DNA of 64,000 nucleotides from Candidatus Promineifilaceae bacterium (GCA_041987425.1 JBHIWP010000002.1:18608-82607); one strand, 5' to 3'; positions 13,839 through 59,946 are shown, numbered from the stretch's first letter. Numbers and translations: made by a program. The notes: generated from the sequence alone by a model not told the origin.

Positions 13839-13852
13839 TGTCCTTTGTCCTG

Positions 13853-14320
13853 TTACCTGCCGTCAAGCCACCTTGCCAACTCATCAACGGCCGTATCATG
13901 CAGCCTGATAATGCCTGCCATTGCCCGCTTGGCAACGGTCTTAAGTGTCCACCACCTGCCAACAAACATTTCTTTCTGCGTGCCCTCGCCAATAACATCA
14001 GGCGCATAACTCAGGCTTGACCCAAACTCGCCTTGATACGCTGCCCCCACTTTGCGCGTGGTCTGTATGGTAGCCCGGCCAATAGGCCCGCCCGATTGCG
14101 TTACACCCAGGCTACGGCCTAACGTGCCGGTACGTCTGTATGACTGATTAGGGCGCGGCTTGGGATAGCTCGGCACGCTGCTTTGTACATGCAATAATGA
14201 CGCTTGCATGGTCTTTTCCATTACCCGGCTAAACTCATTCGGGTAACGGCTAAACCGCTGCATTAAATCACGCGGGGTCATGATGACTTCGATACTTGAA
14301 TCAGCCATACGCCACCTCAA
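13853..14320 (-). CDS. Phage structural/morphogenesis protein, unknown family
   Basis: 155-aa ORF coupled to the upstream head morphogenesis gene. Confidence 0.4.
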   Translation of the reverse strand: MRWRMADSSIEVIMTPRDLMQRFSRYPNEFSRVMEKTMQASLLHVQSSVPSYPKPRPNQSYRRTGTLGRSLGVTQSGGPIGRATIQTTRKVGAAYQGEFGSSLSYAPDVIGEGTQKEMFVGRWWTLKTVAKRAMAGIIRLHDTAVDELARWLDGR

Positions 14321-15068: not shown

Positions 15069-16591
15069 AGCTTACGCGCCCCCCGCTCTACACGCTTCAG
15101 TGCATCCTTGAAATAGCCGTTTGCCGTGCGATACCAGCGTCGCTCCAGTTTGCGCCGTTCGTTATCATCCGGCGCGTTACCAGCCTCAAATAGCGTTACG
15201 GCATTGTCGTCACGTTCGGGCATGTCGCTATCGTCGTTTTGTTGGTTACGGCCGTTTGGTGGTTGCCCGCGCTGCATGGCCTCTTGTATCATGCGCTGTC
15301 TTTCTTCTGCTTTGCGGTCGGCTTCCTCTTGCAGTTCTGTGATTTCATCCTCAGTCTTTTCCGGCATACCGAAGATTGACCGTATCTGGACCTCATCTTC
15401 TGGTGTCCAGTTCACACCACCGCCCACGGCCTTGATAAAGTCAATCATCATGTTTGTGTCTACATCACCCGCCGGGCTATGTTCTAGCTTGATATTGTCC
15501 GGTTCACGGCCGTTCAGTTCTAGCAATCGCTGTACGGCGTGCTTGGTGAACGTTTCCGCTATCGTATCGGCAAAGGCATCTACTGCCATCGTGAAAAATG
15601 ATACGTCGCTTTCTGCCTTTGACTGCGTGCCCACGCCATTAATACCTAAGATGGTAAACTGTGCCAATGCAGCCAGCAACACCTTTTGGTCATAGTCGCT
15701 TATAGTCGTGTTCAATGCCATAAACACCTGAGCATTGCCCGCGCTCATCAGGTCCACCTCCCACATGTGCATTTCGCCCTCACCCGTCGGTGGGGGAATG
15801 ACAATGCCGCCCTGTTCGTCAACACGAATGTTACGGGCGATCTCTTTTGCGCGGGTATGATCGTCACTTCCCTCGCTGCCGTCGCTGCCATAGGGCATAC
15901 GCACCTTAGGCATACCCGCCGCATGTCGTTCGTAACCTATGGCGCGTATCTCTTCCAAGTTTGTGCCATAGTAAAAGCTAGTCCAGGCGGGCCGCAAGAT
16001 GCTCTCCCCCTCTGGATTGCCCCCGGCATGACGAAATCGGATGACTAGCATCCGTTCTACAGGTATCGGGTCTCTCCACAGGTGCGGGTATTGCTGCAAG
16101 CCAAGTAACCCGCCGTCTTGTGCAAATATCCAGTCCATATGGGTTTCATGGCCCAGCATCTTGAACTTACGCCATAGCAAACGGCCGTCTTTACGCTCGT
16201 ACTTATTTGTGAACGTGGTCCAGCCATAGAAGGCGCTCAGCACCGCATCACTGATAAAATCTGCCCATGAATGCGTAAGGTTATTAAACGCCTCATTGAC
16301 TAACTCTAAATCAGGGTCATCTTGCCCCAATTCGCTGGTGAAAAACCAGTCTACCTTACGTATGGACATCTCAATAGCCAGGCGTAACGCGCCGCCAATA
16401 AGCGGGCTATTCTTGACCATCCGGTCAACCGTCTTGACCTTCTTTTGCGTCGTTTTCCAATCGTCAAGAAAATCATCCATGACGATACCAAACCGCTCAC
16501 GCTGCCCACTGGCTCCGATGTCCTTTGTCAATGAACCAGTTGGCAAACGGCCGTTGCTGCCATTCACTCTATATTCTGCTACTTGTTCCAT
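15065..16591 (-). CDS. Portal protein
   Basis: 508 aa, immediately downstream of TerL, with an acidic/basic C-terminal tail. Confidence 0.8.
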   Translation of the reverse strand: MEQVAEYRVNGSNGRLPTGSLTKDIGASGQRERFGIVMDDFLDDWKTTQKKVKTVDRMVKNSPLIGGALRLAIEMSIRKVDWFFTSELGQDDPDLELVNEAFNNLTHSWADFISDAVLSAFYGWTTFTNKYERKDGRLLWRKFKMLGHETHMDWIFAQDGGLLGLQQYPHLWRDPIPVERMLVIRFRHAGGNPEGESILRPAWTSFYYGTNLEEIRAIGYERHAAGMPKVRMPYGSDGSEGSDDHTRAKEIARNIRVDEQGGIVIPPPTGEGEMHMWEVDLMSAGNAQVFMALNTTISDYDQKVLLAALAQFTILGINGVGTQSKAESDVSFFTMAVDAFADTIAETFTKHAVQRLLELNGREPDNIKLEHSPAGDVDTNMMIDFIKAVGGGVNWTPEDEVQIRSIFGMPEKTEDEITELQEEADRKAEERQRMIQEAMQRGQPPNGRNQQNDDSDMPERDDNAVTLFEAGNAPDDNERRKLERRWYRTANGYFKDALKRVERGARKL

Positions 16592-18105
16592 TAGAATTTA
16601 CCCCACCTGCCCCCATTGTTACCGTTGCTAAAGCTGCCCCACCGTGAATTATACTCGCTTTCTGTCTGAATTGAACCGGACGCCACATGAGGCAGATACT
16701 TAAAGCCACCGGATGCGGCATCTACCGGGTCTTTGATGCCATTAGGAAAAGATGTCAAGATGTTTAACAGGCGTTCATTCCAATGCCCCTTAATAATCTT
16801 GACGTTACGCGCCTCACACTGCGCGGCTAATGGCTCGGCTCTCAATACCTTGTCACCCGTTGGCTTATCTGCCTGAATCACATAGCCTGGATTGCGAATG
16901 ATGGTCGCCTGTGCCGATTCCTTGCCGCCGCTCCCCGGCTCCTGTTCGATGTAGGTGTAAACACGGCCGTACTTTGCCGCGTCTATCTCCAAGGTCTGAC
17001 TAATTATCTTCTCGCGTTCAGCAGCTTCCCACTGCCCCATAATCATGTCACAAATAAAATAAGTGCCCTTGTATGCAGCCAGTAAGACGCCCGCCGTGTA
17101 TGCGCCCGCGTCTTTTGTCCCTGCTTTGTCCCAATAGCGCACATAATGAGACTTTGACGGCACCTGATTAACAATATCAAACCATTCACGCTTAAACATG
17201 CCGCCCTCGCGTGGTGACGGCCGTTGCTGGTAAAGCGCCGCCCAAAAGTATGAGCCTATGCGCTTCTTTATCTTTTCTAGCTTTTCAATTGTGTAGCGTT
17301 CAGCAGCTAATGGCTCCCCCACTTTTCGGCTATCATGTTCTACCGTACAAGAATCGGCATATGCTGGCCTGTCTGGTTCCTTAATGGCTTCAAAGTCCAC
17401 AATATGCCAGTTCTCCGGCTCTTCCTCGTATTCCTTATTGAGTAGGTACCCGCTTAAGTCATCCTCATGCCAGCGCGTTTGAATCACGATAATTGCCGCG
17501 CCCGGTTCCTCTCTGGTGTAAAAGGTTGAATCGTACCAGTCCTTTTGTTTGGCCCGTATCGTTTCACTGGCTGCTTCTTCTGCGTTCTTAAGCGGGTCGT
17601 CGATGATACCCAGGTGGAAGCCCTTACCCGTGATAGGCCCGCCCACGCCAGCCGCCCACAGCCCGCCGCCCTGGTTGGTTTCCCAATGCTTGACGGCCGC
17701 TGCGTCATGCTTCACTTGCCCACCTGCGCGGGTATAGTTGTCTCGTGAATTGCGGGAGAAGGTATAGGCCAATTCAGCAGCGTATGAATTAATACCCACC
17801 CAGCGCCCAGGGTGCTTTAGCAAATAGTAAGCAGAGAATAAGCGGCTAACTAATTCGCTTTTCCCATGACGCGGCGGCATGAATATCATGAGCCGGTCTA
17901 TTTCACCGTCTGCCACCTTTTGCAGTACGGCCGCTAGTTGCTTCACATGGGGATACCATTGGTAACGGGGATTAACTGAGGTAACGAAGTCGATGAAAGA
18001 ACCGGCCGTCGCCTGGGTCACAGATTCTTCGGCCTCTATCCTGTCGGCTTCGGGCCATAAATGTTTGTACCTCAGTGAAGGGGGAAGGTTAGTCGCTACG
18101 GTCAT
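16591..18105 (-). CDS. terL: Terminase large subunit
   Basis: 504 aa. Walker-A-like PPRHGKSE, IIDDP Walker B, and a C-terminal nuclease-type acidic region. Lies between TerS and the portal. Confidence 0.85.
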   Translation of the reverse strand: MTVATNLPPSLRYKHLWPEADRIEAEESVTQATAGSFIDFVTSVNPRYQWYPHVKQLAAVLQKVADGEIDRLMIFMPPRHGKSELVSRLFSAYYLLKHPGRWVGINSYAAELAYTFSRNSRDNYTRAGGQVKHDAAAVKHWETNQGGGLWAAGVGGPITGKGFHLGIIDDPLKNAEEAASETIRAKQKDWYDSTFYTREEPGAAIIVIQTRWHEDDLSGYLLNKEYEEEPENWHIVDFEAIKEPDRPAYADSCTVEHDSRKVGEPLAAERYTIEKLEKIKKRIGSYFWAALYQQRPSPREGGMFKREWFDIVNQVPSKSHYVRYWDKAGTKDAGAYTAGVLLAAYKGTYFICDMIMGQWEAAEREKIISQTLEIDAAKYGRVYTYIEQEPGSGGKESAQATIIRNPGYVIQADKPTGDKVLRAEPLAAQCEARNVKIIKGHWNERLLNILTSFPNGIKDPVDAASGGFKYLPHVASGSIQTESEYNSRWGSFSNGNNGGRWGKF

Positions 18106-18442
18106 TCAAGAGGTTAAGCAGGTCCAGCTTTATACCATCTGTCTCGCCCTGCGAATATTTGAGCCAATCTAACAAGTCTTTTTCAGTTTTGATATCAGGG
18201 GTATTTTCTTTTACAAACTGGCGTATAACACGGTTCGCAATTCGCAATCTCTCCGCACGGCTGGCAATGCCTACCATGTGAGAAAGACGGTCAACCTCTT
18301 GGCTAAATTCGGGGATGTCAAGCCAACGGCGTACCGTTCTGTCGGTTACACCACCGTTGTCCGCTGCCTCTTGCTGGGTAAGTCCCTTTGCAAGAGAGAG
18401 CGCAACCTTTTCTTTTGCGTCAGTCCACTTTAATTCGGACAT
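18089..18442 (-). CDS. terS: Terminase small subunit (HTH)
   Basis: 117 aa with a helix-turn-helix (LTQQEAADNGGVTDRTVRRW). Overlaps the terL start. Confidence 0.65.
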   Translation of the reverse strand: MSELKWTDAKEKVALSLAKGLTQQEAADNGGVTDRTVRRWLDIPEFSQEVDRLSHMVGIASRAERLRIANRVIRQFVKENTPDIKTEKDLLDWLKYSQGETDGIKLDLLNLLNDRSD

Positions 18443-18582
18443 TTCTAGGACACCTAGCCCCCGATTGCACCATCTGTCATCATCCTGCCTCCTGCCACGC
18501 TAACAATACTATCAACGTTACCTTACAGTATACATAAATTGGCTCTATGTGTACAGAGGTAAGGCGGGGGCAGTGGGGCCAA

Positions 18583-18864
18583 TTAGTCAAAACCATACGC
18601 CTCACATACGGCGTTATGCAATTCCTCAATCGTAGGTGCTGCTATCGTGTCAACATGAGTACGATACTGTTTCACCATTGCTTTAAATAGATTGTCGTTT
18701 GTGTCATACCATACCGCTGCGTGAAAGTTCCAGCCAGGATAATCAGCATAGCAATCGCCGCCTTTTAATCTCTCTGCAATTTCATAATCAATCGCATGGT
18801 CAAAGTTTGATACTACACTCACCCCCAAATATTCAAGGTTCTCTGGTCTTATTGCAATGCTCAT
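18583..18864 (-). CDS. Phage protein, unknown function
   Basis: 93-aa ORF. Confidence 0.4.
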   Translation of the reverse strand: MSIAIRPENLEYLGVSVVSNFDHAIDYEIAERLKGGDCYADYPGWNFHAAVWYDTNDNLFKAMVKQYRTHVDTIAAPTIEELHNAVCEAYGFD

Positions 18865-18906
18865 TCACTCACCATCCCGGCATCTATCGCCAATTCTAGT
18901 ATCTTG

Positions 18907-19542
18907 TCAAGCCAGAGGCGCTGGGCTTTGGTCAGAAGATAGTCGCCCGGCTTTGCACCATCTCCCAACGTGCGCGTTCAATCCTTGCACAGTACCAAAT
19001 TTACGGCCGCACTTTTCGCATTCATGCTCTGCACTATTCGCACTCATGCCAGCATCCTTTTGCATAGTGCTAGCATGTGCAAATTTTAATTCTAGCTCTT
19101 TTGCTTTAAGCTGTCGCTTTGCTTCTTTATCCAAAGCCTTTTGCTTAAGGTCAAATGATAGCATTATACCGTCCTGCCTGGTGTCTTGCTTAACCAATTC
19201 CTGCAAAGCAACCAGAACATAAACCAATGGTGCGATCCAGAACACCACCGCGCCAATGCTATCACGTAGCTCATAGGAGCCTATGCCAACATACGCCACC
19301 ATGATAACAACCGCAATAACGGCCGTTCTGTTATCGTTTCGTTTCCATGCTGTCATGCCCACGTGCCCCGCCAATATACCCACCGCCTCCAAGCCTAGCG
19401 CCGTCAATGCGCCAGCGGGAATGGCTAACCACGCCTCATTTGTCATAGTTAGAACAGCCGAATAAACACGCCAGCCGAAAAAGATGACGGGTGCAATGGG
19501 TACAAAAATCGGTGCCGTGATAGACAAGAATTGATAAATCAT
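18907..19542 (-). CDS. Multi-pass membrane protein with a coiled coil and a C-terminal C2H2-type zinc finger
   Basis: About 4 hydrophobic helices, then a Lys/Glu coiled coil, then CEKCGRKFGTVQGLNAHVGRWC. The start was set at 19542 (MIYQF), 2 nt after the upstream stop. Confidence 0.5.
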   Translation of the reverse strand: MIYQFLSITAPIFVPIAPVIFFGWRVYSAVLTMTNEAWLAIPAGALTALGLEAVGILAGHVGMTAWKRNDNRTAVIAVVIMVAYVGIGSYELRDSIGAVVFWIAPLVYVLVALQELVKQDTRQDGIMLSFDLKQKALDKEAKRQLKAKELELKFAHASTMQKDAGMSANSAEHECEKCGRKFGTVQGLNAHVGRWCKAGRLSSDQSPAPLA

Positions 19543-19544
19543 AC

Positions 19545-20006
19545 TTAACTGTCCCTTCCCTTTTTGTATCCCCACAACCAAATAACAATCAAGGGGGTCG
19601 CAATCAATGATATTTTGTAAAAAGCATTCGGAGAAAGTGCATCTCCAGAGATGCCGCTAACAATATAAGCAGACTGTGTATACACGTACGCAAGAAAACC
19701 AATGGTTGCAATAATAATGACGTACGCCCTGACAGGCATTACTAATCTGAAAGGGCGAGGATCAATCTCTCTAGTTGCCTTCCCTAAATTGCAATCACAA
19801 CATGCAACAACAAGATTGTCTACTGAATCTGTGCCACCTTTTGAAACAGGTAATACATGGTCAATATGCAGCTTAACATCTGGGGCGCTTCTGCCACAAT
19901 ACCTACACGTAAAATGGTCTCTGCTCAATATTTTCCATCTTTTTTTCTTCGATAAGTTTCTACGCATTGTAAAGTCCCCAGCGCGGCATGGACACAACAA
20001 CCGCAC
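19545..20006 (-). CDS. HNH endonuclease fused to C-terminal transmembrane helices
   Basis: CRYCG...HIDHVLPVSKGGTDSVDNLVVACCDCNLGK, followed by about 3 hydrophobic segments. The start may instead be the internal ATG at 19967. Confidence 0.6.
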   Translation of the reverse strand: MRLLCPCRAGDFTMRRNLSKKKRWKILSRDHFTCRYCGRSAPDVKLHIDHVLPVSKGGTDSVDNLVVACCDCNLGKATREIDPRPFRLVMPVRAYVIIIATIGFLAYVYTQSAYIVSGISGDALSPNAFYKISLIATPLIVIWLWGYKKGRDS

Positions 20007-20036
20007 TCCACATTAAGAGCTTGCCGTAATCAAGTC

Positions 20037-20612
20037 TCATCCGTTGTTACTCCAATGCCACGCCTCAGCCGCGTAGCAATAATGCACAATTTCTTTAACG
20101 GGCCAGCCGCTATCCGTCAATGTCATCAGGTGACTATCTAAGGATACCAATTGCCCCTCATTAACGTGTTCATTTGTAAGGACGGCGGGCGCGGTAATGC
20201 GCTTGATGTTTCGCCCTGTCATCCGCACAATGCCGAAATAGATAGCATCAAGGTCTAACAGTCGGCACTGCTCTATACTATCCCCGCTTAAGGCCAGGTA
20301 GATTGCAGCCAGGGCACAAGCGCGATAAGTTGTTCGCCGCTCATAGGCATAGTAGCCCTTCTCTGTGCGCTCAATGAATTGCTTTCTTGCAATGCCGTAC
20401 ATCTGCCAGCCCATAGCCAGGAAGTGCCCTAACGGCTCCCGCCTTACCGGCTGCGGCTGGTATATTTCTTCCCAGGTGCGCGGGCGATCTGGAATCGTCA
20501 CCCGCTGCGGCTGCATAACGCTATACGACTGTTGCACCGCTGGCAGGTTAGCACCGCTCTGTTGCCATTGGTCTTGTAACACGATACGGCCGTTGTTCGT
20601 TCTCACACTCAT
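20037..20612 (-). CDS. Phage protein, unknown function
   Basis: 191-aa ORF. Confidence 0.45.
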   Translation of the reverse strand: MSVRTNNGRIVLQDQWQQSGANLPAVQQSYSVMQPQRVTIPDRPRTWEEIYQPQPVRREPLGHFLAMGWQMYGIARKQFIERTEKGYYAYERRTTYRACALAAIYLALSGDSIEQCRLLDLDAIYFGIVRMTGRNIKRITAPAVLTNEHVNEGQLVSLDSHLMTLTDSGWPVKEIVHYCYAAEAWHWSNNG

Positions 20613-41203: not shown

Positions 41204-42031
41204 CTATTGTCTAACTGGGATATTTTGCAGCGCCAGGTAATCCTTCACTTCGGCGATGGTGAGCTGTTTGTAGTGAAACAGCGAAGCGGCGAGAGCCGCA
41301 TCCGCGCCGCCTTCCGTCAATGCCTGGGCAAAGTGGTGCAGCGTGCCAGCACCGCCGGAGGCAATGACGGGGATGTTGACCGCGTCGGCAATGGCACGAG
41401 TGAGTTCGATGTCATAGCCTTCTTGCGTGCCGTCCCCGTCCATGCTGGTGAGCAAAATCTCGCCCGCGCCGCGCCGCTCGGCCTCCTTGGCCCATTCGAC
41501 AGCGTCCAGCCCGGTGGGGGTGCGGCCGCCGCTGACGTACACTTCCCAATGGTTAATGGTTAATGGTAAATTGTTAATGCTTAATTGCTGTTCATTCAAC
41601 TGATCACTGCTTACCGAAGCCCGCTCACCAACCCGTCGCGCGTCAATTGCCACCACCACCGCCTGGCTGCCAAAGGCTTCGGCGCCCTGGCTGATGATCT
41701 CCGGGTTGCGCACGGCCGCAGAGTTGATGCTGATCTTGTCTGCCCCGGCGCGCAAAATGCCGCGCATGTCTTCCACCGTGCGGATGCCGCCCCCGATGGT
41801 AAAGGGAATGAACACCTGCTCCGCCACGGCGCGCGCCAGCTCCATCACCGTGTTGCGCGCCTCATGGGTGGCCGTGATGTCTAGAAAAACCAGCTCATCG
41901 GCCCCGGCTTGATCATAAAGCCTGGCCTGCTCCACCGGATCGCCCGCGTCGCGCAGCTCAACAAAGTTGATGCCTTTGACCACACGGCCGTCTTTCACGT
42001 CTAAGCAGGGAATAATGCGTTTGGCTAACAT
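41204..42031 (-). CDS. hisF: Imidazole glycerol phosphate synthase, cyclase subunit
   Basis: [37 protein letters not shown]. Carries a 21-aa repeat-derived insert. Confidence 0.9.
41549..41611 (-). repeat. Nine tandem heptamers (63 nt) in frame inside hisF
   Basis: The coding strand reads CAGTGAT CAGTTGA ATGAACA GCAATTA AGCATTA ACAATTT ACCATTA ACCATTA ACCATTG, encoding [21 protein letters not shown]. Confidence 0.75.
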
Positions 42032-42044
42032 AAAAGCTCTCTTG

Positions 42045-42785
42045 TCAGTCGGCGCGCACGGTATTGAACGCTTCTTGCAGGTCTAAACGGCCGTCATAAA
42101 TGGCACGTCCGGTAATCACCCCAACCACACCATGTTCCGCCTGGGCGTGACAGCGGCGAATGTCTTCCATTGAGGCCACGCCCCCGGAAGCGATGACCTG
42201 CAAGCCCGTCACCTGGCTCAGCTGCACCGTCGCCTGCACATCTACACCGCTTAACACGCCATCACGACCAATGTCGGTGTAGATAATGGTTTTGACCCCG
42301 CGCTCTTTCATATCCTTGCCCAGATCAACGGGATTCATGGCCGTATCGCGCTGCCAGCCTCTCGTCTTAACACGGCCGTTGCGCGCATCTATACCCACCA
42401 ATATTTTACTCTTGCCAAACTTTTCCACGGCTTTGCTAACCAGGTCTGGCTTTTCGATGGCCACCGTGCCCAAAATGACCCGGTTAGCGCCAGCGTCCAG
42501 GGCTCGCGCCACATCATCCAGGCTGCGGACGCCGCCGCCAAACTGCACCTTCACGTCTAGCTGGGCGATGGCAGGCAACGCAGCCCAGTTAGCTGCACTG
42601 GCTTCGTCCAGAGCGCCGTCCAGGTTGACCACGTGCAGCCACCTGGCTCCGGCGTCAACCCATTTTTGGGCCATTTTGACGGGATTATTGCCAAACACGG
42701 TTTCTTTTTCAGGATCGCCATGCTCCAGCCGCACGACACGGCCGTTGCGTAAATCAATAGCGGGGAATATCGTGAACTTACTCAA
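42045..42785 (-). CDS. hisA: ProFAR isomerase
   Basis: [34 protein letters not shown]. Confidence 0.9.
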
Positions 42786-42803
42786 TGGTACCTCTTGGGA
42801 TGA

Positions 42804-42862
42804 GGTAATTGTGTAATTAAGCGATTGGGTAATTACCCAGTTACTCAGTTACCCAATTACAC
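42804..42862. repeat. Octamer-period repeat hairpin in the hisA-hisH spacer
   Basis: GTAATTGT GTAATTAA GCGATTGG GTAATTAC CCAGTTAC TCAGTTAC CCAATTAC, with a central palindrome GGGTAATTACCC. It overlaps the hisH stop. Confidence 0.6.
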
Positions 42863-43528
42863 TTTTTCTACAAAGTTTCTCAAAATCGTTAAACCTACAC
42901 TCTGGCTCTTTTCCGGGTGGAATTGCAGACCATAGATATTATCCTTAGCTACCACAGATGCAAAGGGAAAACCATAGTCAGTCCAGGCAAGAACGGCCGT
43001 TGCATCGTCCGCATCGCAGTAGTAAGAATGGACAAAGTAAGCGTAGTCGCCCGTTTTTACGCCATTCAGCAGCGGATTGTCCCAGGCGGGTTCCAACTGG
43101 TTCCAGCCCATGTGGGGAACTTTTAAATGGTTAATGGTTAATTGTGAATGGTGAATGGTTAACGGATTGGCTTCATTACCCATTAGCCCTTTCTCTGGAA
43201 ACCGCACCACCTTGCCCGCCAGTAAATCCAGGCCCTCGTGGACGCCCATTTCATGCCCTTCCGTGAACATGAGCTGCATTCCGACACAGATGCCCAAAAA
43301 AGGAACGCCGCGCTGCACGGCTTCGTGAATGGCTTCGGGCAGGTTGTGCCGTCGCAGGCCATCCATGCCAGAGCCAAAAGCGCCCACGCCGGGCAGCACC
43401 AGCTTGTCGGCACGGCGCACTACCTCCGCGTCGTCCGTCAGGTGCACCTCGGCCCCAATATACTCAAATGCCTTCTGCGCCGAGCGAATGTTGCTGGCGC
43501 CGTAGTCGATCATGGTGATTTTGGTCAT
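42857..43528 (-). CDS. hisH: Imidazole glycerol phosphate synthase, glutaminase subunit
   Basis: GVGAFG, ICVGMQL, PHMGWN, HSYY, FHPEKS. Carries a repeat-derived insert before PHMGWN. Confidence 0.9.
   Translation of the reverse strand: MTKITMIDYGASNIRSAQKAFEYIGAEVHLTDDAEVVRRADKLVLPGVGAFGSGMDGLRRHNLPEAIHEAVQRGVPFLGICVGMQLMFTEGHEMGVHEGLDLLAGKVVRFPEKGLMGNEANPLTIHHSQLTINHLKVPHMGWNQLEPAWDNPLLNGVKTGDYAYFVHSYYCDADDATAVLAWTDYGFPFASVVAKDNIYGLQFHPEKSQSVGLTILRNFVEKV
43121..43162 (-). repeat. Six tandem heptamers (42 nt, unit TTAACCA) in frame inside hisH
   Basis: The coding strand reads TTAACCA TTCACCA TTCACAA TTAACCA TTAACCA TTTAAAA, encoding LTIHHSQLTINHLK. Confidence 0.75.
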
Positions 43529-43533
43529 ATTTT

Positions 43534-43617
43534 GGTAATCCGTTAGCGGTTATCGGTATTCAGTGAATCAGTATTCAGTGAGTCAGTTACTGATTACCGA
43601 CCACTGACCACTGGTTA
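43534..43617. repeat. Twelve tandem heptamers forming an imperfect dyad. They fill the hisH-hisB spacer
   Basis: GGTAATC CGTTAGC GGTTATC GGTATTC AGTGAAT CAGTATT CAGTGAG TCAGTTA CTGATTA CCGACCA CTGACCA CTGGTTA. Confidence 0.65.
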
Positions 43618-44211
43618 CTCCGTCAGCGTTCCCTTCGTCGAAGCCACGTCCAGCCGTCGTGGGTCAATGGCTACGGCCGTTCTCAGCGCCCTGGCAAATG
43701 CCTTAAACAGGGCCTCGGCCTGATGGTGATCGTTACGGCCGTATTCAATGCGGGCGTGCAGGTTCATTCTGGCGTGAATGGCTACCGATTCAAAGAAGTG
43801 CTGCACTAGATCAGTGGGCATCTGGCCGATGGCTGGCGTGTGCCAGGTACCGTGGAAGACCGTGTACGGCCGTCCGCCCAAATCAATCGCCACAAAGCCC
43901 AGCGCCTCGTCCATCGGCACGTAGGCATGCCCCACGCGGGTGATGCCCTTGCGGTCGCCTAAAGCACTGTTGATGGCTTGCCCGAAAACAATGCCTACGT
44001 CCTCAATGGTGTGGTGCGTGTCGATGTGCAGGTCGCCCGTGGCCACCACCGTGAGATCAAACAGTCCGTGGATGGAAACGGCCGTAAGCATATGGTCAAA
44101 AAAGCCAACGGCCGTACTGATGTCGTGCTGCCCTCTGCCTTCCAAATTGATGGAGACAGAAATGTCTGTTTCGCTGGTTTGCCGATGAATGCTTGCTGTT
44201 CGTGTCATCAT
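43615..44211 (-). CDS. hisB: Imidazoleglycerol-phosphate dehydratase
   Basis: [26 protein letters not shown], and [11 protein letters not shown] are typical IGPD motifs. Confidence 0.9.
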
Positions 44212-44234
44212 GAATCGTTTTGTTGAAGTTTATA

Positions 44235-44325
44235 CAAAGGAACGAAGATAGAAAGGAACCAAGAGGATTAGCAACTAATTGATTATCTTACTTCTTTGTT
44301 TCTTCCGTCCCTTTGTCTCTTCGTC
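44235..44325. repeat. Purine-rich octamer-period hairpin in the hisB-hisC spacer
   Basis: The left arm AAAGGAAC GAAGATAG AAAGGAAC CAAGAGGA faces a pyrimidine-rich right arm, CTTCTTTGTTTCTTCCGTCCCTTTGTCTCTTCGT. Confidence 0.55.
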
Positions 44326-44332
44326 TAATTAA

Positions 44333-45481
44333 TTACTGCTCTTCTAAACGACGCAGTTCGGCAAGCAACTGGTCTGTCTCCTCTGGCCGTCCGGCGCTGA
44401 TGCGGATGCAGTTGTCTACGCCGGGCTTATTAAAGTAACGCACCAGAATGCCTTCTTTTTCCAGATCAAGTTTGAGTGCCTGCGCACTGCGGCCAATGAC
44501 CCGGCATAATATAAAGTTTGAACGGCTGGGGAGTGGGTTCAGGTAGCTAATTGTACCCAATTTTGTAAAAAGGCGCTCTCTTTCTGCAACCAAAAGCTGC
44601 ACTTTCTCATGCAGCCACGCCTGATCGGCCAGTGAGGCCAGCGCCGCCAGCGAAGCGGCGACGTTAATGTTGTACGGCTGCTTGATTTTCCACAGGTGCG
44701 GCAGCAGCCATTCCGGGAACGCGCCGTACCCCACGCGCAGCCCGGCCAGCCCGGCCAGCTTGCTAAACGTCCGCAGCACCGCCAAATTGTCATATTCCAA
44801 GGTCCAGTGAATGCGGCTGGCTGAATTAAAACTGACCGTGGAGTTTTCCTCTTCTTTTTCTCTGCGTTCTCCGCGGTTCAAATCAAAATCGACGTACGCT
44901 TCGTCAAGAACAACGAGGACGGGTAGTTGGAGCAAACGTCGTAGGTCGGCGTCATTGATGGTGCTGCCGTCCGGATTGTTGGGCGAGCAGATGAAGAGGA
45001 CTTTGGCGGTGGGGTGCTTGGCTACGGCCGTTTCAATGGCGTCAACGTCCAGGCTGAAATCTTCTTTGCGCCACACCTGCACGTAACGGCCGCCGTTAAC
45101 GGCCGTGCTGAACGGATACATGCCAAACGACGGTGGGCAATCTATCACCACGTCGTCTGGCGAGAGCACCACGCGCAGCACCAGGTCGATCAGCTCATCG
45201 GCGCCCATGCCCGCCAGCAGCCGCGCCTTGGGCATCTGCACATAGCTGCTGAGCGCATCGCGCAGTTCGTTGGATTCGGGGTCGGGGTAGATGTGGAAGA
45301 AACGGCCGTTGCGTAAAGCCTCCAAAGCCTTCGGCGACGGCCCATAAGGATTCTCGTTGGCGTCCAACTTCACAATTTCCTCCGGCGCCCGCCCCAGCCG
45401 TGCCGACAGCACCTCAAACGGCACAATTGGAATGTAAGGCTCCATCTCAGCAATATCAGGTCGTACAAATCTGTTGGTCAT
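44333..45481 (-). CDS. hisC: Histidinol-phosphate aminotransferase
   Basis: KLDANENPYGPSP, DEAYVDF, and LRTFSKLAGLAGLRVGY (PLP lysine). Carries a repeat-derived insert between DEAY and RTFSK. Confidence 0.9.
   Translation of the reverse strand: MTNRFVRPDIAEMEPYIPIVPFEVLSARLGRAPEEIVKLDANENPYGPSPKALEALRNGRFFHIYPDPESNELRDALSSYVQMPKARLLAGMGADELIDLVLRVVLSPDDVVIDCPPSFGMYPFSTAVNGGRYVQVWRKEDFSLDVDAIETAVAKHPTAKVLFICSPNNPDGSTINDADLRRLLQLPVLVVLDEAYVDFDLNRGERREKEEENSTVSFNSASRIHWTLEYDNLAVLRTFSKLAGLAGLRVGYGAFPEWLLPHLWKIKQPYNINVAASLAALASLADQAWLHEKVQLLVAERERLFTKLGTISYLNPLPSRSNFILCRVIGRSAQALKLDLEKEGILVRYFNKPGVDNCIRISAGRPEETDQLLAELRRLEEQ
44843..44878 (-). repeat. 36-nt repeat-derived segment in frame inside hisC
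   Basis: The coding strand AACCGCGGAGAACGCAGAGAAAAAGAAGAGGAAAAC encodes NRGERREKEEEN. Its first 20 nt match the inverted repeats flanking the GxxExxY gene. Confidence 0.65.
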
Positions 45482-45501
45482 AGTTAGTTGCTTCCTTATT
45501 A

Positions 45502-45532
45502 TTAACCGCGGAGAGCGCGGAGAACGCTGAGA
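45502..45532. repeat. Left inverted repeat flanking the GxxExxY gene
   Basis: TTAACCGCGGAGAGCGCGGAGAACGCTGAGA, with a 9-nt periodic unit GGAGAGCGC. Confidence 0.65.
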
Positions 45533-45540
45533 TTTGGCTG

Positions 45541-45936
45541 TTAGAGGTTGAGAGCCACACGCTTGATGCCACCAACTTTTAGTCGGCGCACGTTGAAATT
45601 TAGTAGCAACCCTAGCTTTAGATTTGCCAGCTTTAAGTAGGACATTAATTGTGCCTGGTGTATGGCTTCAAATTTTTTGATAGCTTTTAGCTCCACAACA
45701 ACAAGATTTTCTACTACAAAGTCCGCTCTATAAGCATTCTCCACAGGAAGTTGTTTGTAGATTAACGGGATGGTTCTTTCGCGCTCATATTCAATGTTTC
45801 GCAATGCCATCTCATGAGCCAAACAGGCCTGATAAGCTGACTCTAGCAAGCCAGGACCGAGATGTTTATGTACTTCAATGGCCGCCCCGATAATCTTTCC
45901 CGTAATCTTGTCTTCTTCTCGCATTGGCTCTCTCAT
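45541..45936 (-). CDS. GxxExxY family protein (PD-(D/E)XK-like, PDDEXK_3)
   Basis: KIIGAAIEVHKHLGPGLLESAYQACLAHEM contains the GxxExxY signature. The start was set at the first ATG (45936), because the ORF-track start is a TTG. Confidence 0.75.
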   Translation of the reverse strand: MREPMREEDKITGKIIGAAIEVHKHLGPGLLESAYQACLAHEMALRNIEYERERTIPLIYKQLPVENAYRADFVVENLVVVELKAIKKFEAIHQAQLMSYLKLANLKLGLLLNFNVRRLKVGGIKRVALNL

Positions 45937-45942
45937 ATTCAA

Positions 45943-45977
45943 TCCTCCGCGCTATCTCTGCGCTCTCTGCGGTTAAA
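45943..45977. repeat. Right inverted repeat flanking the GxxExxY gene
   Basis: Its reverse complement TTAACCGCAGAGAGCGCAGAGATAGCGCGGAGGA matches the left repeat at 20 of the first 22 positions. The hisD stop lies in its outer TTAA. Confidence 0.65.
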
Positions 45978-47295
45978 TCCTCTTCCTTGCAGCGTTGGCA
46001 TGGGCGTCGAGGGCTTCCGCCTGGGCGATGCGGGCGGCGGCGGCGCTGAGTTGGGCAGACGTGGCGTCGTCTAGCTGCACGATGCTGCTGATTTTGACGA
46101 AATCAAGCACGTTGAGCGGTGAGGCAAAGCGGGCGGTGCCGTTGGTGGGCATCACGTGGCTGGGACCGGCCACATAGTCCCCCAACACTTCAAAGCTGCG
46201 CTCGCCAATGAACAGGCCGCCTGCGTTAGGGATTTTATCTGCATAGGCCGCCGGGTTTTGCGTGGCGATGCAGGTGTGTTCGGCGGCAAAGTCGCTGGCA
46301 AGCTGGCAGGCTTCGTCCAAATCGGAGGTTAGCACAATGCCGCCCCGATTAGCCAGCGACACGGCGATCACCTCACTGCGGGTTAGCGATTCCATCTGGC
46401 GGGCAATCTCTACCTGCACGGCCTCGGCCAGCGAATTGGAGGGCGTAAAGAGGATGGCGGTCGCCAGAACGTCGTGTTCGGCCTGTGCCAGCATGTCGGC
46501 GGCAACCCAGGCGGCATCGGCCGTTTCGTCGGCAACGACCGCGGTTTCGGTTGGGCCATACAGGCCGTCGATACCCACAATGCCGTAGACCTGCCGCTTG
46601 GCCAGGGTGGTAAAGAGGTTGCCTGGACCCACAATTTTGTCCACGCGGGGCACGCTTTCCGTGCCAAAGGCCAGCGCGGCGATGGCCTGAGCTCCGCCCA
46701 GCGTATAAATTGTGTCGATGCCAGCAATGGCCGCTGCGGCCAGGATCACGTCCGGGATACGGCCATCTTCCCGTCCTGGCGGGGTTGCCACCACAATCTC
46801 CGGCACACCTGCCACCCGCGCCGGAATTACCGACATGAGCAGCGAAGACGGCAGCGGGGCCGTGCCGCCGGGCACGTAGACACCCACGCGCTGAATCGGC
46901 GTGACGCGCTGGCCGAGAAAGCCGCCCATTTCAGTGGTTTGCCAGTTGGGCAGCGGCTGCCGCTGATGGAAGTCGGCAATGCGATACGCGGCCAGTTCTA
47001 GGGCGTGTTTTAGCGCTGGTTCAATACGCGTGAGAGCCGCAGAAATCTCATCCTTATCCACTCGCAAACTTGCCACTTTCACACCATCTAGCGTTTCCGT
47101 CCAGCGGCGCAGGGCGGCATCGCCTCTCTGGCGCACGTCACGCAAAATGGTGGAGACGGCCGTTTCTGGCGTAGCGCCCTCACCAAACAGTTGGTTTAAG
47201 CTGGCCTGTAATGCCGGGGGCACGTCAGGCTCCAGGGACGTTTCTCGCCGCAGGATGGATTTTTGAGCATCGGGGATTGTGTATATTCTTATCAT
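45973..47295 (-). CDS. hisD: Histidinol dehydrogenase
   Basis: Typical HisD throughout (GGAQAIAALAFGTE, AQAEHD, GDYVAGPSHVMPT). The start was moved to the ATG at 47295 (MIRIYT), because the longer ORF-track N-terminus is encoded by a repeat hairpin. Confidence 0.9.
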   Translation of the reverse strand: MIRIYTIPDAQKSILRRETSLEPDVPPALQASLNQLFGEGATPETAVSTILRDVRQRGDAALRRWTETLDGVKVASLRVDKDEISAALTRIEPALKHALELAAYRIADFHQRQPLPNWQTTEMGGFLGQRVTPIQRVGVYVPGGTAPLPSSLLMSVIPARVAGVPEIVVATPPGREDGRIPDVILAAAAIAGIDTIYTLGGAQAIAALAFGTESVPRVDKIVGPGNLFTTLAKRQVYGIVGIDGLYGPTETAVVADETADAAWVAADMLAQAEHDVLATAILFTPSNSLAEAVQVEIARQMESLTRSEVIAVSLANRGGIVLTSDLDEACQLASDFAAEHTCIATQNPAAYADKIPNAGGLFIGERSFEVLGDYVAGPSHVMPTNGTARFASPLNVLDFVKISSIVQLDDATSAQLSAAAARIAQAEALDAHANAARKRI

Positions 47296-47306
47296 GGTCT
47301 TTTGGG

Positions 47307-47377
47307 AGGAAGTGAAGAGTGAGAAGTGAAAAGTAAAAAGAACCCACTTATCACTTTTCACTTTTTACTTATCACTC
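47307..47377. repeat. Heptamer-repeat hairpin (unit AAGTGA[A/G]) filling the hisG-hisD spacer
   Basis: GAAGTGA AGAGTGA GAAGTGA AAAGTAA AAAG aaccca CTTATCA CTTTTCA CTTTTTA CTTATCA CTC. The arms pair over about 30 bp by hand and overlap the hisG stop. Confidence 0.65.
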
Positions 47378-48390
47378 TGTAAAGCTGTTAGCATGGCGCG
47401 GTACCGCTCCGGTTCTTCTTCAAAAATGTAGGTGCAGGGTGAGACGACCACACCGCTGCCGCCAATGGCTCGTAGTTCAGCAATGGCCTGGAACAAATTT
47501 GCTTTTTGCACAACAATATTAACGGCGAACCAGTTGGGGTCGCCAGGCGTGTGGTGCCGGGCGACGACCGGGGCAATGGTGGGGCCGCGCAGGCCGCGCA
47601 GGTGAGGCTGGCTCAGCATCTTTTTGGCAATATCTTCGGGAGAATCCCCGCGTACGTTTGTGACAACCAGGAAGGAACTTTCGGCGCGCAGGTAGGCTTC
47701 GATGTATTCAATGAGCTGGCGGGCCACGGTGAGCACGTCCGGACGCGTTTTCAGCGTTTCTTTGTTGGCGATCAGGCAGGCTTGCGAGCGCAAGATGAGA
47801 CCATCTTCAATCGGGCGCAAGTGATTGTCGCGCAGGGTGATGCCGGAGGAGACCAAATCGGAGATGACGTCGGCATAGCCGATTGTGGGGGCAATTTCCA
47901 GCGTGCCCTCTACGCTAATTAGCTTGACGGGGGCCACACCGTGCTGTTCCAGGAAAGCACCGGTGACTTTGGGGAACTTAGTCGCCACGCGTAGGGCACG
48001 GCCGTTTTCTCCCAGTGCCTCAGCCCAGGCCGCCAGATCGCCCATCGTGCGGGCTGGCTGATCTTCCGGGATAGCCAGGTTGAGGGTGCAGGGGCCAAAG
48101 CCAAGCGCGTCGTGGAGGGTGAGGATGGATTGCGAACGGCCGTAAGCCTTTTCAGCCAGGATATCCAGGCCCGTAATACCAAAATCAATGCTTCCTTGCC
48201 GTACCCCGGTAACAATATCGCCTGGCCGCTGAAACATCACCGTAAGCTGAGGCAGGCTAGGAATGATGGCTTCATACTGGCGGGGATTGGGTCTAAAAAT
48301 CTTTAATCCACACGCTTCTAAAAAATCAAACGCGTCTTTGTGCAAGGCCCCCTTACTAGGCAGGGCCAGCCGGATATCTGATCGTAGCAT
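47365..48390 (-). CDS. hisG: ATP phosphoribosyltransferase (long form with C-terminal regulatory domain)
   Basis: LRLALPSKG, DIVTGVRQGSIDFGITG, DLVSSGITLRDN. The start was moved to the ATG at 48390, preceded by GAAGGAG. The ORF-track extension is repeat-encoded. Confidence 0.9.
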   Translation of the reverse strand: MLRSDIRLALPSKGALHKDAFDFLEACGLKIFRPNPRQYEAIIPSLPQLTVMFQRPGDIVTGVRQGSIDFGITGLDILAEKAYGRSQSILTLHDALGFGPCTLNLAIPEDQPARTMGDLAAWAEALGENGRALRVATKFPKVTGAFLEQHGVAPVKLISVEGTLEIAPTIGYADVISDLVSSGITLRDNHLRPIEDGLILRSQACLIANKETLKTRPDVLTVARQLIEYIEAYLRAESSFLVVTNVRGDSPEDIAKKMLSQPHLRGLRGPTIAPVVARHHTPGDPNWFAVNIVVQKANLFQAIAELRAIGGSGVVVSPCTYIFEEEPERYRAMLTALQSDK

Positions 48391-48410
48391 ACAATACTCC
48401 TTCAAGATAG

Positions 48411-48455
48411 TTGAACGCAGAGGCGCAGAGAACGTAAACCGCAAAATCTCTGCCT
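48411..48455. repeat. GCGCAGAGA-type repeat element in the hisG 5' UTR
   Basis: GAACGCAGAGGCGCAGAGAACGTAAACCGCAAAATCTCTGCC uses the same unit type as the GxxExxY flanks and the hisC insert. Confidence 0.5.
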
Positions 48456-48500
48456 TAAGTTTATCTTATACGGGAAGGGTTTCACCCGTTATTACAGAAT

Positions 48501-48537
48501 ACAAACAAAAACACCCTCCTCTGGCTTGAGGAGGGTG
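48501..48537 (-). terminator. Intrinsic terminator of the his leader (attenuator)
   Basis: The minus strand reads CACCCTCCTC aagcca GAGGAGGGTG followed by TTTTTGTTTGT. It lies 34 nt after the leader-peptide stop and about 110 nt before the hisG ATG. Confidence 0.7.
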
Positions 48538-48570
48538 CTAAAATGCATCCCAGTTAGAATTAAAGCTGCC

Positions 48571-48651
48571 TCAACCCAAAGTAAACCATCGCCAACTTGC
48601 ATGGTGTGCGTGATGATGCTTCAGATGGGTTGCAGCAGGAATGTTTTTCAT
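48571..48651 (-). CDS. His-rich leader peptide of the his operon (26 aa)
   Basis: Hand translation gives MKNIPAATHLKHHHAHHASWRWFTLG, with six His including HHHAHH. It is followed by the terminator and is absent from the ORF track. Confidence 0.6.
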   Translation of the reverse strand: MKNIPAATHLKHHHAHHASWRWFTLG

Positions 48652-48670
48652 GACGCTAAAAGTCTAGCAC

Positions 48671-48699
48671 ATACTACGTGGTGTGCAATCTATTTCCAA
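48671..48699 (-). promoter_or_regulatory. Candidate his operon promoter TTGGAA-17-TAGTAT
   Basis: Minus-strand reading: -35 at 48699-48694 and -10 at 48676-48671, about 20 nt upstream of the leader ATG. Confidence 0.3.
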
Positions 48700-48808
48700 T
48701 ATCCCTTCTGTAAAGAGCCTTTTAACAGTTTGTTATCAATTCGATTTATGCCCTGATTGATGTGTATAATGTGCGAAAAATTCTTGCTAAATTTAGGTAG
48801 GTTGCACC

Positions 48809-50536
48809 GTGTCTATTCCTGGAACAGTTGTTTACAATTCGGCAGTAGAAGATTTTAAGCGGGCCCGTCGCGCCGCGGCCATGCAGCAAATGATGGCCCG
48901 GCTCACCGGCAAGTCGGCCGATCTTTTGGCCTATGAGGATGTTTGCCGCTATGTGAAATCTGCTGACGAGGTGAAGCAGGGCGTGCGGGAGATCCCACTG
49001 GACGCCATTGTGGGCAGCGTAGGCCGGTACAAGGATTTTACGCGTACTTTCTGGCCCAAGAACGATAGTGATGAGGAGCGTTGGGTGCGGGTGAAAACGG
49101 CCGTTCACGATATGTCTGGTATGTCGCCCATTGATGTGTATAAAACCGGCGACGTTTACTTTGTTATTGACGGCAACCACCGGGTCTCTATTGCCCGGCA
49201 GCTGGGCAGCGACACGATTACCGCCCGCGTCACGGAAGTGCCGCTGCGCGTGCCCCTGTCGCCCGATGATGATCCTGAAAAAATTATTTGTAAAGCGCGG
49301 TATGCTGAGTTTTTGGAGCAAACGGATCTGGACAATTTACGACCTGGAGCAAATCTGCTGATGACTTTTTGTGGCCAGTACCAGCTGCTGCTGGACCAGA
49401 TTGCGGCGCATGCTGCGCTTTTGGCGGAGAAGGGTGAAGCGGTTGATGATAAAACGGCCGTTTGCCGCTGGTATGATGAGGTGTATCTGCCTGTCTTGCG
49501 CCACATTCAGGCGCAGGGCATCATGCGCCTCTTTCCAGACAGGACCCAGGCCGATATGTACATCCTTTTTTCTGAACGGCGGGCGGAGCTGGAAGAGGCT
49601 TTGGGTTGGAAGATTGATGCGGAGACGGCCGTATCTCAATTAGCCAGCGAAGAAAGCGACCGACCAAAAGGGCTGGCGGGCTGGCTGCGCCAGACGCTGG
49701 TACCCGCAGAGCTGATTGAAGGGCCGCCCCCAGGGCGCTGGCGGGAATTTCAGGAAACGCGAGAGCGAGGTTGCCTGTTTGCCGATTATTTGGTGGCTAT
49801 AGAGGGCAGCGAAACAGATTGGCAAATGCTGGACCAGGTGGTAAAGATGGCGCTGCGCGACAATGACCGTCTGCTGGGCCTGCACGTGGTGGCGCGTCAG
49901 GCGCAGCGAAACAGCGCGAAAGTAGAGCGGATCCGAGAAAGATTTCTGCGCACCTGCCGTGAGGCTGGCCTTAGATGCGAGTTTGCCGTTGAAGTGGGCG
50001 CTGTTGTGGATGTTATTATTAAACGGGCCATCTTTGCTGATTTGGTCGTGCTCAATTTAGAGCATCCCCCGGGGCCACAGGCTCTCGCCAGGTTGGGCAA
50101 CCGCTTTAGCCAGCTGGTGCAGCGCTGCCCACGACCCATTTTAGCCATTCCTTGTGGGGCAGAGACGGCTATGGACCGGGTGCTATTGGCTTACGACGGC
50201 AGCCCCAAGGCAGATGAAGCGCTGTTTGTGGCTACCTACCTGGTAACGCGCTGGCCGCTGTCCTTGACGGTGGTTACGGTGGAGACGGAGCATACGGCGG
50301 CCAATGCCCTACAGCGCGCCAAAGAATATTTGGAGGCGCACGGCGTTACGAAAGCGCGGTACGTGTTGGGCAAGATGCCCATTGCAGAAGCGGTTTTACA
50401 AACGGCCGTTGACGAAGATATTAATTTTCTCATCATGGGTGGCTTTGGTTTTAGGCCCATGATGCACTTTGTGCTCGGCAGCACTGTGGATGAGATTTTG
50501 CGGCGGTTTAAGCATCCAATTTTAATTTGTCGATGA
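48809..50536 (+). CDS. ParB/Srx-like N-domain protein with a DUF4032-like middle region and tandem C-terminal universal stress protein domains
   Basis: YFVIDGNHRVSIARQLG (ParB/sulfiredoxin-type), then WYDEVYLPV...RTQADMYIL. Two USP-like halves follow, ending GGFGF...VLGSTVDEILR. GTG start. Confidence 0.6.
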   Translation: MSIPGTVVYNSAVEDFKRARRAAAMQQMMARLTGKSADLLAYEDVCRYVKSADEVKQGVREIPLDAIVGSVGRYKDFTRTFWPKNDSDEERWVRVKTAVHDMSGMSPIDVYKTGDVYFVIDGNHRVSIARQLGSDTITARVTEVPLRVPLSPDDDPEKIICKARYAEFLEQTDLDNLRPGANLLMTFCGQYQLLLDQIAAHAALLAEKGEAVDDKTAVCRWYDEVYLPVLRHIQAQGIMRLFPDRTQADMYILFSERRAELEEALGWKIDAETAVSQLASEESDRPKGLAGWLRQTLVPAELIEGPPPGRWREFQETRERGCLFADYLVAIEGSETDWQMLDQVVKMALRDNDRLLGLHVVARQAQRNSAKVERIRERFLRTCREAGLRCEFAVEVGAVVDVIIKRAIFADLVVLNLEHPPGPQALARLGNRFSQLVQRCPRPILAIPCGAETAMDRVLLAYDGSPKADEALFVATYLVTRWPLSLTVVTVETEHTAANALQRAKEYLEAHGVTKARYVLGKMPIAEAVLQTAVDEDINFLIMGGFGFRPMMHFVLGSTVDEILRRFKHPILICR

Positions 50537-59849: not shown

Positions 59850-59871
59850 GTTTCGTTTAAAAGTAATGGAC

Positions 59872-59946
59872 GCAGATTCTCCTGATTGACCTGATTTTGA
59901 TCGCTTTTCAATCAGATCTATCAGGAGAATCTGCGTTTTATTTTTT
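59872..59946. terminator. Bidirectional intrinsic terminator between convergent genes
   Basis: 15-bp perfect arms GCAGATTCTCCTGAT at 59872-59886 and ATCAGGAGAATCTGC at 59920-59934. GTTTTATTTTTT follows on the plus strand. An inner CTGATT/AATCAG pairing is also present. Confidence 0.65.

Follow-up and report, generated by a model that had tools for sequence, protein, structure and literature searches.

A GxxExxY nuclease gene bracketed by heptamer inverted repeats at a hisD-hisC junction: an old copy of a candidate mobile element class

Why would a his operon carry, between hisD and hisC, the gene of a very small nuclease closed on both sides by inverted repeats? The question is raised by a 476-bp segment (45502-45977) in a 64-kb stretch of the genome of a Candidatus Promineifilaceae bacterium; the whole analyzed stretch is called the window here. 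A first-pass annotation of this DNA had described a 131-amino acid (aa) GxxExxY gene interrupting the hisD-hisC junction and proposed that gene and repeats form a mobile cassette, with gene-less copies of the repeat as its derivatives. The gene and its position hold, the open reading frame (ORF) at 45541-45936 matching both the PF13366 and the TIGR04256 profile, and the same gene-plus-bracket architecture is found across phyla. Based on the evidence presented below, the segment would be an ancient, vertically kept copy of a widespread class of elements that combine a PD-(D/E)XK nuclease gene with heptamer inverted repeats, similar to repetitive extragenic palindromes (REP) with their REP-associated tyrosine transposase (RAYT) genes or to miniature inverted-repeat transposable elements (MITE), and probably mobile or once mobile. 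This is the best explanation found, and its chances of being correct are about even. The class is apparently undescribed, and gene-less hairpins with the same arms are apparently its short relatives. The junction is organized as follows (RBS, ribosome-binding site).

45973-47361, minus strand: hisD.
45943-45976, minus strand: 5' arm (gene-proximal), TTAAC CGCAGAG AG CGCAGAG ATAG CGCGGAG GA.
45943-45948, minus strand: GGAGGA, likely RBS of the nuclease gene from a reading of the sequence, at the inner end of the third 5'-arm unit and 6 nucleotides (nt) before the ATG.
45541-45936, minus strand: GxxExxY / PDDEXK_3 gene, 131 aa, a minimal PD-(D/E)XK nuclease with the motif G27-E32-Y35 plus D72, E82 and K84.
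45502-45532, minus strand: 3' arm, reverse complement TTAAC CGCGGAG AG CGCGGAG AA CGCTGAG A.
44333-45481, minus strand: hisC.

Each arm consists of a short terminus followed by three tandem heptamers of the CGCRGAG type (R, purine). Over the outer 22 nt the two arms are complementary at 20/22 positions (45502-45523 and 45955-45976), in agreement with the earlier count. The inverted repeats had been given as about 31 bp long; three units are indeed present per arm, but only these outer 22 nt pair in register, the innermost unit being displaced by 2 nt between the arms (spacers ATAG vs AA). The 18-mer CCGCGGAGAGCGCGGAGA, with up to 3 mismatches allowed, matches 4 times in the 64 kb against 0.05 expected, all four matches lying within the his operon, and 0/100 shuffles reached this number. 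TTAA stands at both outer ends, as had been reported, the TAA of the hisD side (45975-45973) being the stop codon of hisD. The nuclease gene is on the same strand as its two neighbors and encodes 131 aa if translation begins at the ATG and 133 aa if it begins at a TTG farther upstream. Judging from the bases involved, the third unit of the 5' arm likely doubles as the Shine-Dalgarno sequence of the nuclease gene, and the arrangement of GGAGGA before the ATG is present also in three other fetched loci (L003, L008 and L095). Also, the RBS and ATG of hisC directly adjoin the 3' arm. On the gene strand, the element was found to contain no promoter-like or terminator-like site, and co-transcription with the rest of the operon is therefore expected.

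The encoded protein matches the PDDEXK_3 profile PF13366 with an E value of 3.5e-42 (143.9 bits vs a cutoff of 22) and the GxxExxY profile TIGR04256 with 6.5e-44 (149 bits vs a cutoff of 35). G27, E32 and Y35, which fall in a block of invariant columns, do not vary among 19 homologues, nor do D72 and K84, and E82 is nearly invariant; the PD-(D/E)XK active site is intact. The AlphaFold2 model, with a predicted local distance difference test (pLDDT) score of 79.8, shows the element order H-H-E-E-E-H-E-E (H, helix; E, strand). Structure prediction, one of the checks proposed in the first-pass annotation, returns a PD-(D/E)XK fold whose best match in the PDB is Cas4 SSO0001 (4ic1; E 8.7e-4; template modeling (TM) score 0.45-0.53), followed by Bax1, alkaline exonuclease and, among the weak matches, splicing endonucleases, the TM scores of the top matches being modest (0.42-0.53). 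At the sequence level, matches to Cas4 profiles are weak and below the family cutoffs, and PADLOC likewise reports weak Cas4 only. The PDB search gave no sequence relative and no solved structure for GxxExxY/PDDEXK_3, the PHROGs search no match for the family, and the profile searches no known transposase class, matches being limited to PDDEXK_3 and weak Cas4. Two identities were considered and rejected, namely phage or plasmid cargo (7 plasmid records carry the family, with no PHROG match) and a known defence gene (weak Cas4 in PADLOC only).

At 50% identity the family falls into 34,545 clusters when matches with E ≤ 1e-3 are counted and 15,511 when the limit is E ≤ 1e-10, and almost nothing on it was found in the searchable portion of the literature. 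A search by family names and repeat strings retrieved no description of the architecture, most subscription journals being outside its reach, so that a prior description is possible. In a representative library, natural two-domain GxxExxY fusions are found (P0241, P0242 and P0244; 270-295 aa), in which the second domain is without E-x-K. As this domain looks catalytically degenerate, the fusions suggest that the working unit of the nuclease may be a dimer.

The bracket is not particular to this locus. In a sample of 80 loci from a genome scan with the GxxExxY profile, which includes Chloroflexota, Acidobacteriota, Planctomycetota, Bacteroidota, Gemmatimonadota, Chlamydiota, Proteobacteria, Nitrospinota and others, tandem CRCNRAG units (N, any base) bracket the gene fully in 53/80 loci and partially (one side, or other orientation) in 21/80, whereas 6/80 have no units by this motif definition, several of the six carrying variant units. 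Unit clusters number 306 in 773 kb vs 13 after shuffling. The distances from a forward arm to the next reverse arm are bimodal, with 44 pairs at 0-100 nt, corresponding to hairpins, and 51 pairs at 350-600 nt, and every bracket of 350-600 nt with a family match encloses a GxxExxY gene. The lone exception in this size class is a 154-aa ORF in L052 (717-1181), without Pfam or NCBIfam match and with an IVEAKGE stretch, which has its own CGCAGAG-type bracket beside a GxxExxY element; apart from it and a doubtful DUF5615 case, no other cargo was found in the CRCRRAG brackets of the fetched loci. Moreover, when 3443 ORFs of 70-260 aa were scanned blind to the motif, 44 had strong flanking inverted repeats, and 40/44 of these are GxxExxY genes.

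The gene had been placed in the loop of a long hairpin, which is one layout of the family, but a second one is also found, in which the gene stands between two complete hairpins (hairpin-gene-hairpin). Extra hairpins cluster near the gene, their density falling from 1.55/kb between 150 and 300 nt to 0.24/kb at 0.5-1 kb and to 0.05-0.14/kb at more than 2 kb; control HisC-anchored contigs with no GxxExxY gene detected have about 0.06 clusters per kb. In L015 (~4860-5000), a tandem duplication of the 5' arm and the first ~70 nt of the GxxExxY ORF is observed, which looks nested or slipped. Across phyla, the GxxExxY protein is the only partner conserved with the heptamers, and we infer that the nuclease would bind and cut at the heptamer arrays.

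Aligned on their first unit, the loci share a design in which a TTNAC end is followed by about three (two to four) CRCRRAG heptamers per arm, with the consensus terminus TT[C/A/T]AC on both arms and a unit period of 8-11 bp (mode 9). Then, the TTAA ends of the window element are not a feature of the family, and TTAA as a piggyBac-like target duplication was rejected, TTAA being lineage-specific, belonging to the palindromic terminus and overlapping the hisD stop codon. Within any one element of the close subfamily, the purines chosen in CRCRRAG do not vary; GC content does not account for the unit variant (rho = 0.22, p = 0.07), and the variation at the purine positions may simply be tolerated. 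In more distant GxxExxY copies the units are different ones, for example CACGAAT in L032 and CATCCGTT in L159.

How long the element has been at this site can be judged from its orthologues. The closest homologues (~58-89% identical) all occupy this hisD-hisC junction, in assemblies of Ardenticatenaceae and Anaerolineae-type Chloroflexota, and both arms are kept in every hisD-hisC orthologue with both flanks fetched. The identity of the GxxExxY protein runs in step with that of HisC/HisD (86-89% vs 87-90%, and 69-71% vs 75-79%), which indicates vertical inheritance. The ratio of nonsynonymous to synonymous substitution (dN/dS) is 0.035-0.043 in the pairs where it is computable, and the proportion of synonymous differences (pS) is 0.52-0.86, being at least 0.65 in 9/10 pairs, which puts synonymous sites at or close to saturation. 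Despite this divergence, the non-coding arms are nearly unchanged across orthologues, for example TTAACCGCGGAGAGCGCGGAG in five lineages, so the arms themselves are under purifying selection. The window copy is an old one, vertically inherited with hisD and hisC under strong purifying selection, and not a recent insertion.

Other states of the junction were observed in a HisC-anchored metagenome scan of 80 loci. The gene is present in L091, L093, L095, L099 and L114, and a distant version, 41% identical, in L159. It is absent from L088 though the HisC of this locus is 85% identical to that of the window, a 335-nt spacer with unrelated palindromes being found instead, and in many more distant lineages, such as L092, hisD abuts hisC and the site is empty. 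In L096 (~2645-2690), the orthologous site holds a 23-nt minimal palindrome, TTAACCGCGGAGGGCGCGGTTAA, with a 3' flank homologous to that of the filled sites; it would be what a deletion of the element left behind or else its gene-less precursor. The empty sites that the first-pass annotation had suggested looking for are then found, along with the full element and the short palindrome. The same junction also receives a YoeB/YefM toxin-antitoxin pair, after the GxxExxY gene in L168-L177 (e.g. L168 3445-3971) and without it in L094 (2354-3001).

Gene-less versions of the repeat had been reported in hisC and upstream of hisG, and both correspond to recognizable remains.

44819-44884, minus strand: decayed gene-less hairpin, in frame in hisC, encoding DLNRGERREKEEENSTVSFNSA; left arm CCGCGGAGAACGCAGAGA (44859-44876) intact, right arm eroded.
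48411-48455, no strand assigned: remnant in the hisG leader, GAACGCAGAGGCGCAGAGAAC (two units), with the weak hairpin GCAGAGA...TCTCTGC (-7.4 kcal/mol, z = -1.8).

The two units upstream of hisG are present, but they go with a weak hairpin only. The repeat in hisC is real, but in the window it is the single surviving arm of a hairpin that no longer folds (z = +0.5), whereas relatives keep it intact. The window HisC has ~18 extra residues after DEAYVDF, and at the same position L003 carries a perfect hairpin, CACCGCGGAGAGCGCGGAGGACGCGGAG...loop...CTCCGCGATCTCCGCGTCCTCCGCGGTTAA. Intact hairpins are present in this locus and in L004, L007, L088, L089, L095 and L099, with CACAGAG/CTCTGTG units throughout both arms in L004 and CGCAAAG/CTTTGCG units in L007. 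These seven, together with L008 and the window, have inserts encoding NR(K/Q/G)ER...FAPSA.FAV, whereas L006, L091, L093, L094 and every more distant HisC sampled are without such an insert. A clean filled/empty pair is given by L099, with GAGGTT[AACCGC...63 nt...GCGGTT]CAA, and L094, where GAGGTT is followed directly by CAT; in this case GGTT, matching the end of the element itself, is all that is seen, with no target-site duplication. With a unit period of 9 nt, inserts of such units stay in frame. The HisC loop after DEAY(V/I)(D/E)F also holds unrelated inserts of 13-40 residues in L162, L118, L109, L132, L105, L106 and L115, and this surface loop would be a general hot spot for tolerated insertions. 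L003 and L004 are ~99% identical before the hisC hairpin and ~82% after it (L003 ~5000-5100); the switch, exactly at the repeat, marks either the breakpoint of a recombination or a chimeric join made in assembly.

Do these elements move? Orthologous sites are found in filled, solo and empty states, which speaks for mobility, as do a planctomycete member that occurs in many closely related variants, on metagenome contigs of very short length, and the presence of four copies within 15 kb of the IS-rich contig L179. The first-pass annotation's notion of a cassette with solo hairpins as relatives is upheld by these states, and neither a lack of flanking repeats at other copies nor a uniformly filled hisD-hisC site, either of which it had named as damaging, is what was found. 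Mobility itself, and a role of the nuclease in it, can only be inferred here, and several findings weigh against them. No transposition event was caught among the loci compared, no target-site duplication was found in the family terminus alignment or in the L099/L094 pair, and no recent duplicate bounded by the arms was found in the two sets compared. In one of these sets, L038 and L039 are near-identical inside a larger repeat and the similarity runs past the arms; in the other, L179, copies c1-c3 are near-identical and the similarity extends ~50 nt 5' and ~130 nt 3' past the arms. We know of no strand-transfer activity for a 125-aa PD-(D/E)XK protein. Moreover, long persistence at a single locus under purifying selection is not expected of a purely selfish homing gene, the unit variant has only a faint link to protein phylogeny (identity 0.580 vs 0.571), the hairpin counts given for this genome cover the 64 kb of the window, and the RNA fold of 45495-45985 closes with an arm-arm stem (-151.9 kcal/mol, z = -3.25), which makes an RNA-level role conceivable. 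As for L179 itself (4945-20080), it is an IS66/IS91/integrase-rich planctomycete contig with four GxxExxY copies in 15 kb, one of them without a 5' arm.

This closing stem is the starting point of an explanation at the RNA level, in which the arms would pair in the his transcript as in an intervening sequence (IVS) of 23S rRNA, RNase III or a similar enzyme would cut the stem, and the inserted ORF would be uncoupled from hisD and hisC; the heptamers would be mere stem material and the nuclease a passenger or RNA-acting. Besides the stem, it is favored by the expected co-transcription of an element with no promoter or terminator inside, by the fact that PD-(D/E)XK folds include RNA endonucleases, with splicing endonucleases among the weak fold matches, and by the 23S IVS of Coxiella, which has a 28-bp terminal stem, tandem heptamers upstream of the ORF and an RNase III cut in the stem (PMC4990558). 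However, when the arms of 51 elements were compared with each other, selection for an RNA stem left no trace as an excess of G·U-type over A·C-type mismatches (46, in sense RNA, vs 38; p = 0.45), and half of the mismatches (84) are of transversion type. Also, in the his-locus orthologues the spacers differ between arms and no longer pair (AG/GG vs AT/AT in L093; GA/GA vs GG/GG in L168) while the heptamers are kept, and the inner units are often out of register. Without G·U bias, and with spacers drifting while units persist, the heptamers look like repeated DNA sites read by a protein, which would fit better than a selected RNA stem. RNase III, with little sequence specificity, cannot account for one heptamer across phyla, cleavage of the in-frame hairpins would destroy the hisC message, and the check for conserved 16S/23S rRNA motifs found none, and no rRNA gene, in any locus fetched up to that point. 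An explanation confined to RNA is therefore unlikely, although an insulating role in transcripts alongside the DNA role is possible.

Similarly improbable would be a domesticated host gene that processes or polices hairpin or cruciform DNA, or takes part in repair, with the heptamers as autoregulatory operators and no mobility left. The retention of one locus across saturated synonymous divergence with a dN/dS of about 0.04 and conserved arms is what such a gene would show, identical GxxExxY proteins recur in the same context only, and the family is rare on plasmids and absent from PHROGs. Nonetheless, in other phyla the contexts are unrelated and no common host pathway appears, autoregulation does not explain gene-less hairpins of the same units within coding sequence that vary between relatives, four copies share one IS-rich 15-kb stretch, and the gene is lost or absent in L088, a close relative. 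A chance inverted repeat or an assembly artefact, which the use of metagenome-assembled genomes and a possible chimeric join between L003 and L004 could bring to mind, has a negligible probability: independent assemblies and samples show the same gene with the same arms at this site, the pattern is far more frequent than in shuffled sequence, and the architecture recurs across phyla.

For the preferred explanation, that of a vertically kept copy of a probably mobile or once-mobile class, the following sequence of events can be proposed. The element would have inserted between the stop codon of hisD and the RBS of hisC in an ancestor of the Ardenticatenaceae-like Chloroflexota clade, and afterwards it would have been transmitted vertically and co-transcribed with the his operon, with selection acting on both the ORF and the heptamers. 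The nuclease, probably as a dimer, would bind the phased heptamers on double-stranded or cruciform DNA and cut at or near the TTNAC ends, and repair, gene conversion or excision would then copy, shorten or remove the arms. In this way hairpins would be seeded mainly close to the gene, as are REP sequences around RAYT genes. Copies with a length that is a multiple of three would be tolerated inside coding sequence, and the pairing of arms in RNA may isolate the insert as in rRNA IVS, which would help explain tolerance in operons.

A related arrangement is found around genes of the four-helix-bundle family (PF05635/TIGR02436), which in the fetched loci lie in brackets of other tandem units (such as ACGTAAA, GCGTGGA, GGACTGATT and GACGAGG). 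Bracketed genes of this kind are those of L074 (6799-7176), L029 (637-1221), L105 (2537-3064) and L147 (2029-2442), with units such as GTGACGAGG, TTGGACTGA, ACGTAAA and GCGTGGA. In L147, hairpins with matching GCGTGGA units are also present at the hisD-hisC junction, and L157 has at this junction a solo hairpin with AACGTCA units resembling the ACGTAAA arms of L105. With the Coxiella IVS described above, these genes bear out the parallel with IVS ORFs that the first-pass annotation had drawn. A wider claim, which is held tentatively and with less confidence than the explanation of the window element, is that GxxExxY nucleases and phased CRCRRAG hairpins together might be an unrecognised, cross-phylum kind of self-propagating DNA, REP/RAYT- or MITE-like but driven by a minimal PD-(D/E)XK nuclease, and would colonise operon junctions, rRNA and, in frame, coding genes; a sister system would be formed by the four-helix-bundle 23S IVS proteins and the heptamer hairpins that belong to them.

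The remaining genes of the operon in the window are listed here.

47365-48444, minus strand: hisG.
43615-44211, minus strand: hisB.
42857-43528, minus strand: hisH.

At the hisG-hisD junction (47311-47376) there is a solo hairpin of another tandem-unit type, AAGTGA/TCACTT (-14.6 kcal/mol, z = -2.85), and the upstream part of the listed hisD ORF (MKSDKWVLFTFHFSLFTSS) is probably read-through of this hairpin, not protein. Further tandem-unit hairpins in the window are GTAATTG/GGTAATTA, just 3' of hisH (42805-42860), and CTGATT units at 59870-59936. The operon junctions of this genome thus seem to host several families of hairpins. An Rfam search of 42000-50000 gave no meaningful match.

If the wider claim is correct, it would give a function to two very large families of unknown function and answer the 30-year-old question of the role of the IVS ORFs. 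The phased heptamer array is a concrete DNA or RNA substrate to test for the GxxExxY family, and it ties this family to the IVS ORFs of rRNA. In-frame hairpins would also account for odd low-complexity peptides within enzymes, such as RKEREERKE...FAPSASFAV in HisC; similar peptides also seem to occur in many predicted "hypothetical proteins". Moreover, the hairpins may be points of recombination or mis-assembly in metagenome-assembled genomes.

Finally, the element can be compared with known systems. Like the Rickettsia palindromic elements, the hairpins lie in frame in coding genes and are translated as an extra peptide (here NRKEREERKE...FAPSASFAVN in HisC), whereas the Rickettsia elements are of greater length (about 100-150 bp), do not consist of heptamers and have no known associated nuclease gene. 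Cas4/RecB-type PD-(D/E)XK nucleases provide the best fold matches and the weak profile matches of the GxxExxY protein, but this protein is without the Cys/Fe-S cluster region, is ~70 residues shorter, has no cas gene near its gene and scores under the family cutoffs. The 23S IVS with an S23p/four-helix-bundle ORF (Leptospira, Coxiella) shares a small ORF closed by terminal inverted repeats and tandem heptamers (PMC4990558), and the four-helix-bundle genes of the fetched loci are bracketed by tandem-unit arms as well; the mobility of such IVS, likewise, has long been suspected and never demonstrated. However, the window element lies in an mRNA operon between hisD and hisC and not in a 23S rRNA helix, its ORF is a nuclease and not a helical bundle, its heptamer is CRCRRAG vs GACAGAT and others, and the GxxExxY evidence favors a constraint at the DNA level over an RNA stem. 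With insertion sequences (IS) and transposons that have MITE derivatives, it shares terminal inverted repeats with several sub-terminal repeated sites, a bimodal length (gene-bearing and short) and a presence that varies between relatives, whereas it shows no known transposase class and no target-site duplication, and in the recent duplicates examined the similarity runs past the arms. For REP and REP doublets forming hairpins (REPIN) with their RAYT genes, the likeness includes a nuclease gene flanked by its own inverted palindromes, also in the hairpin-gene-hairpin layout, gene-less palindromes elsewhere, long vertical inheritance at one locus and the accumulation of repeats near the gene. 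In this case the differences are that RAYT is a HUH/Y1 single-strand transposase and the GxxExxY protein a 125-aa PD-(D/E)XK nuclease, that REPs have GTAG or CGTC tags and no phased heptamers, and that GxxExxY genes can be multi-copy. By analogy, the persistence of the gene with conserved flanking repeats would resemble RAYT/REP more closely than a classical transposon.

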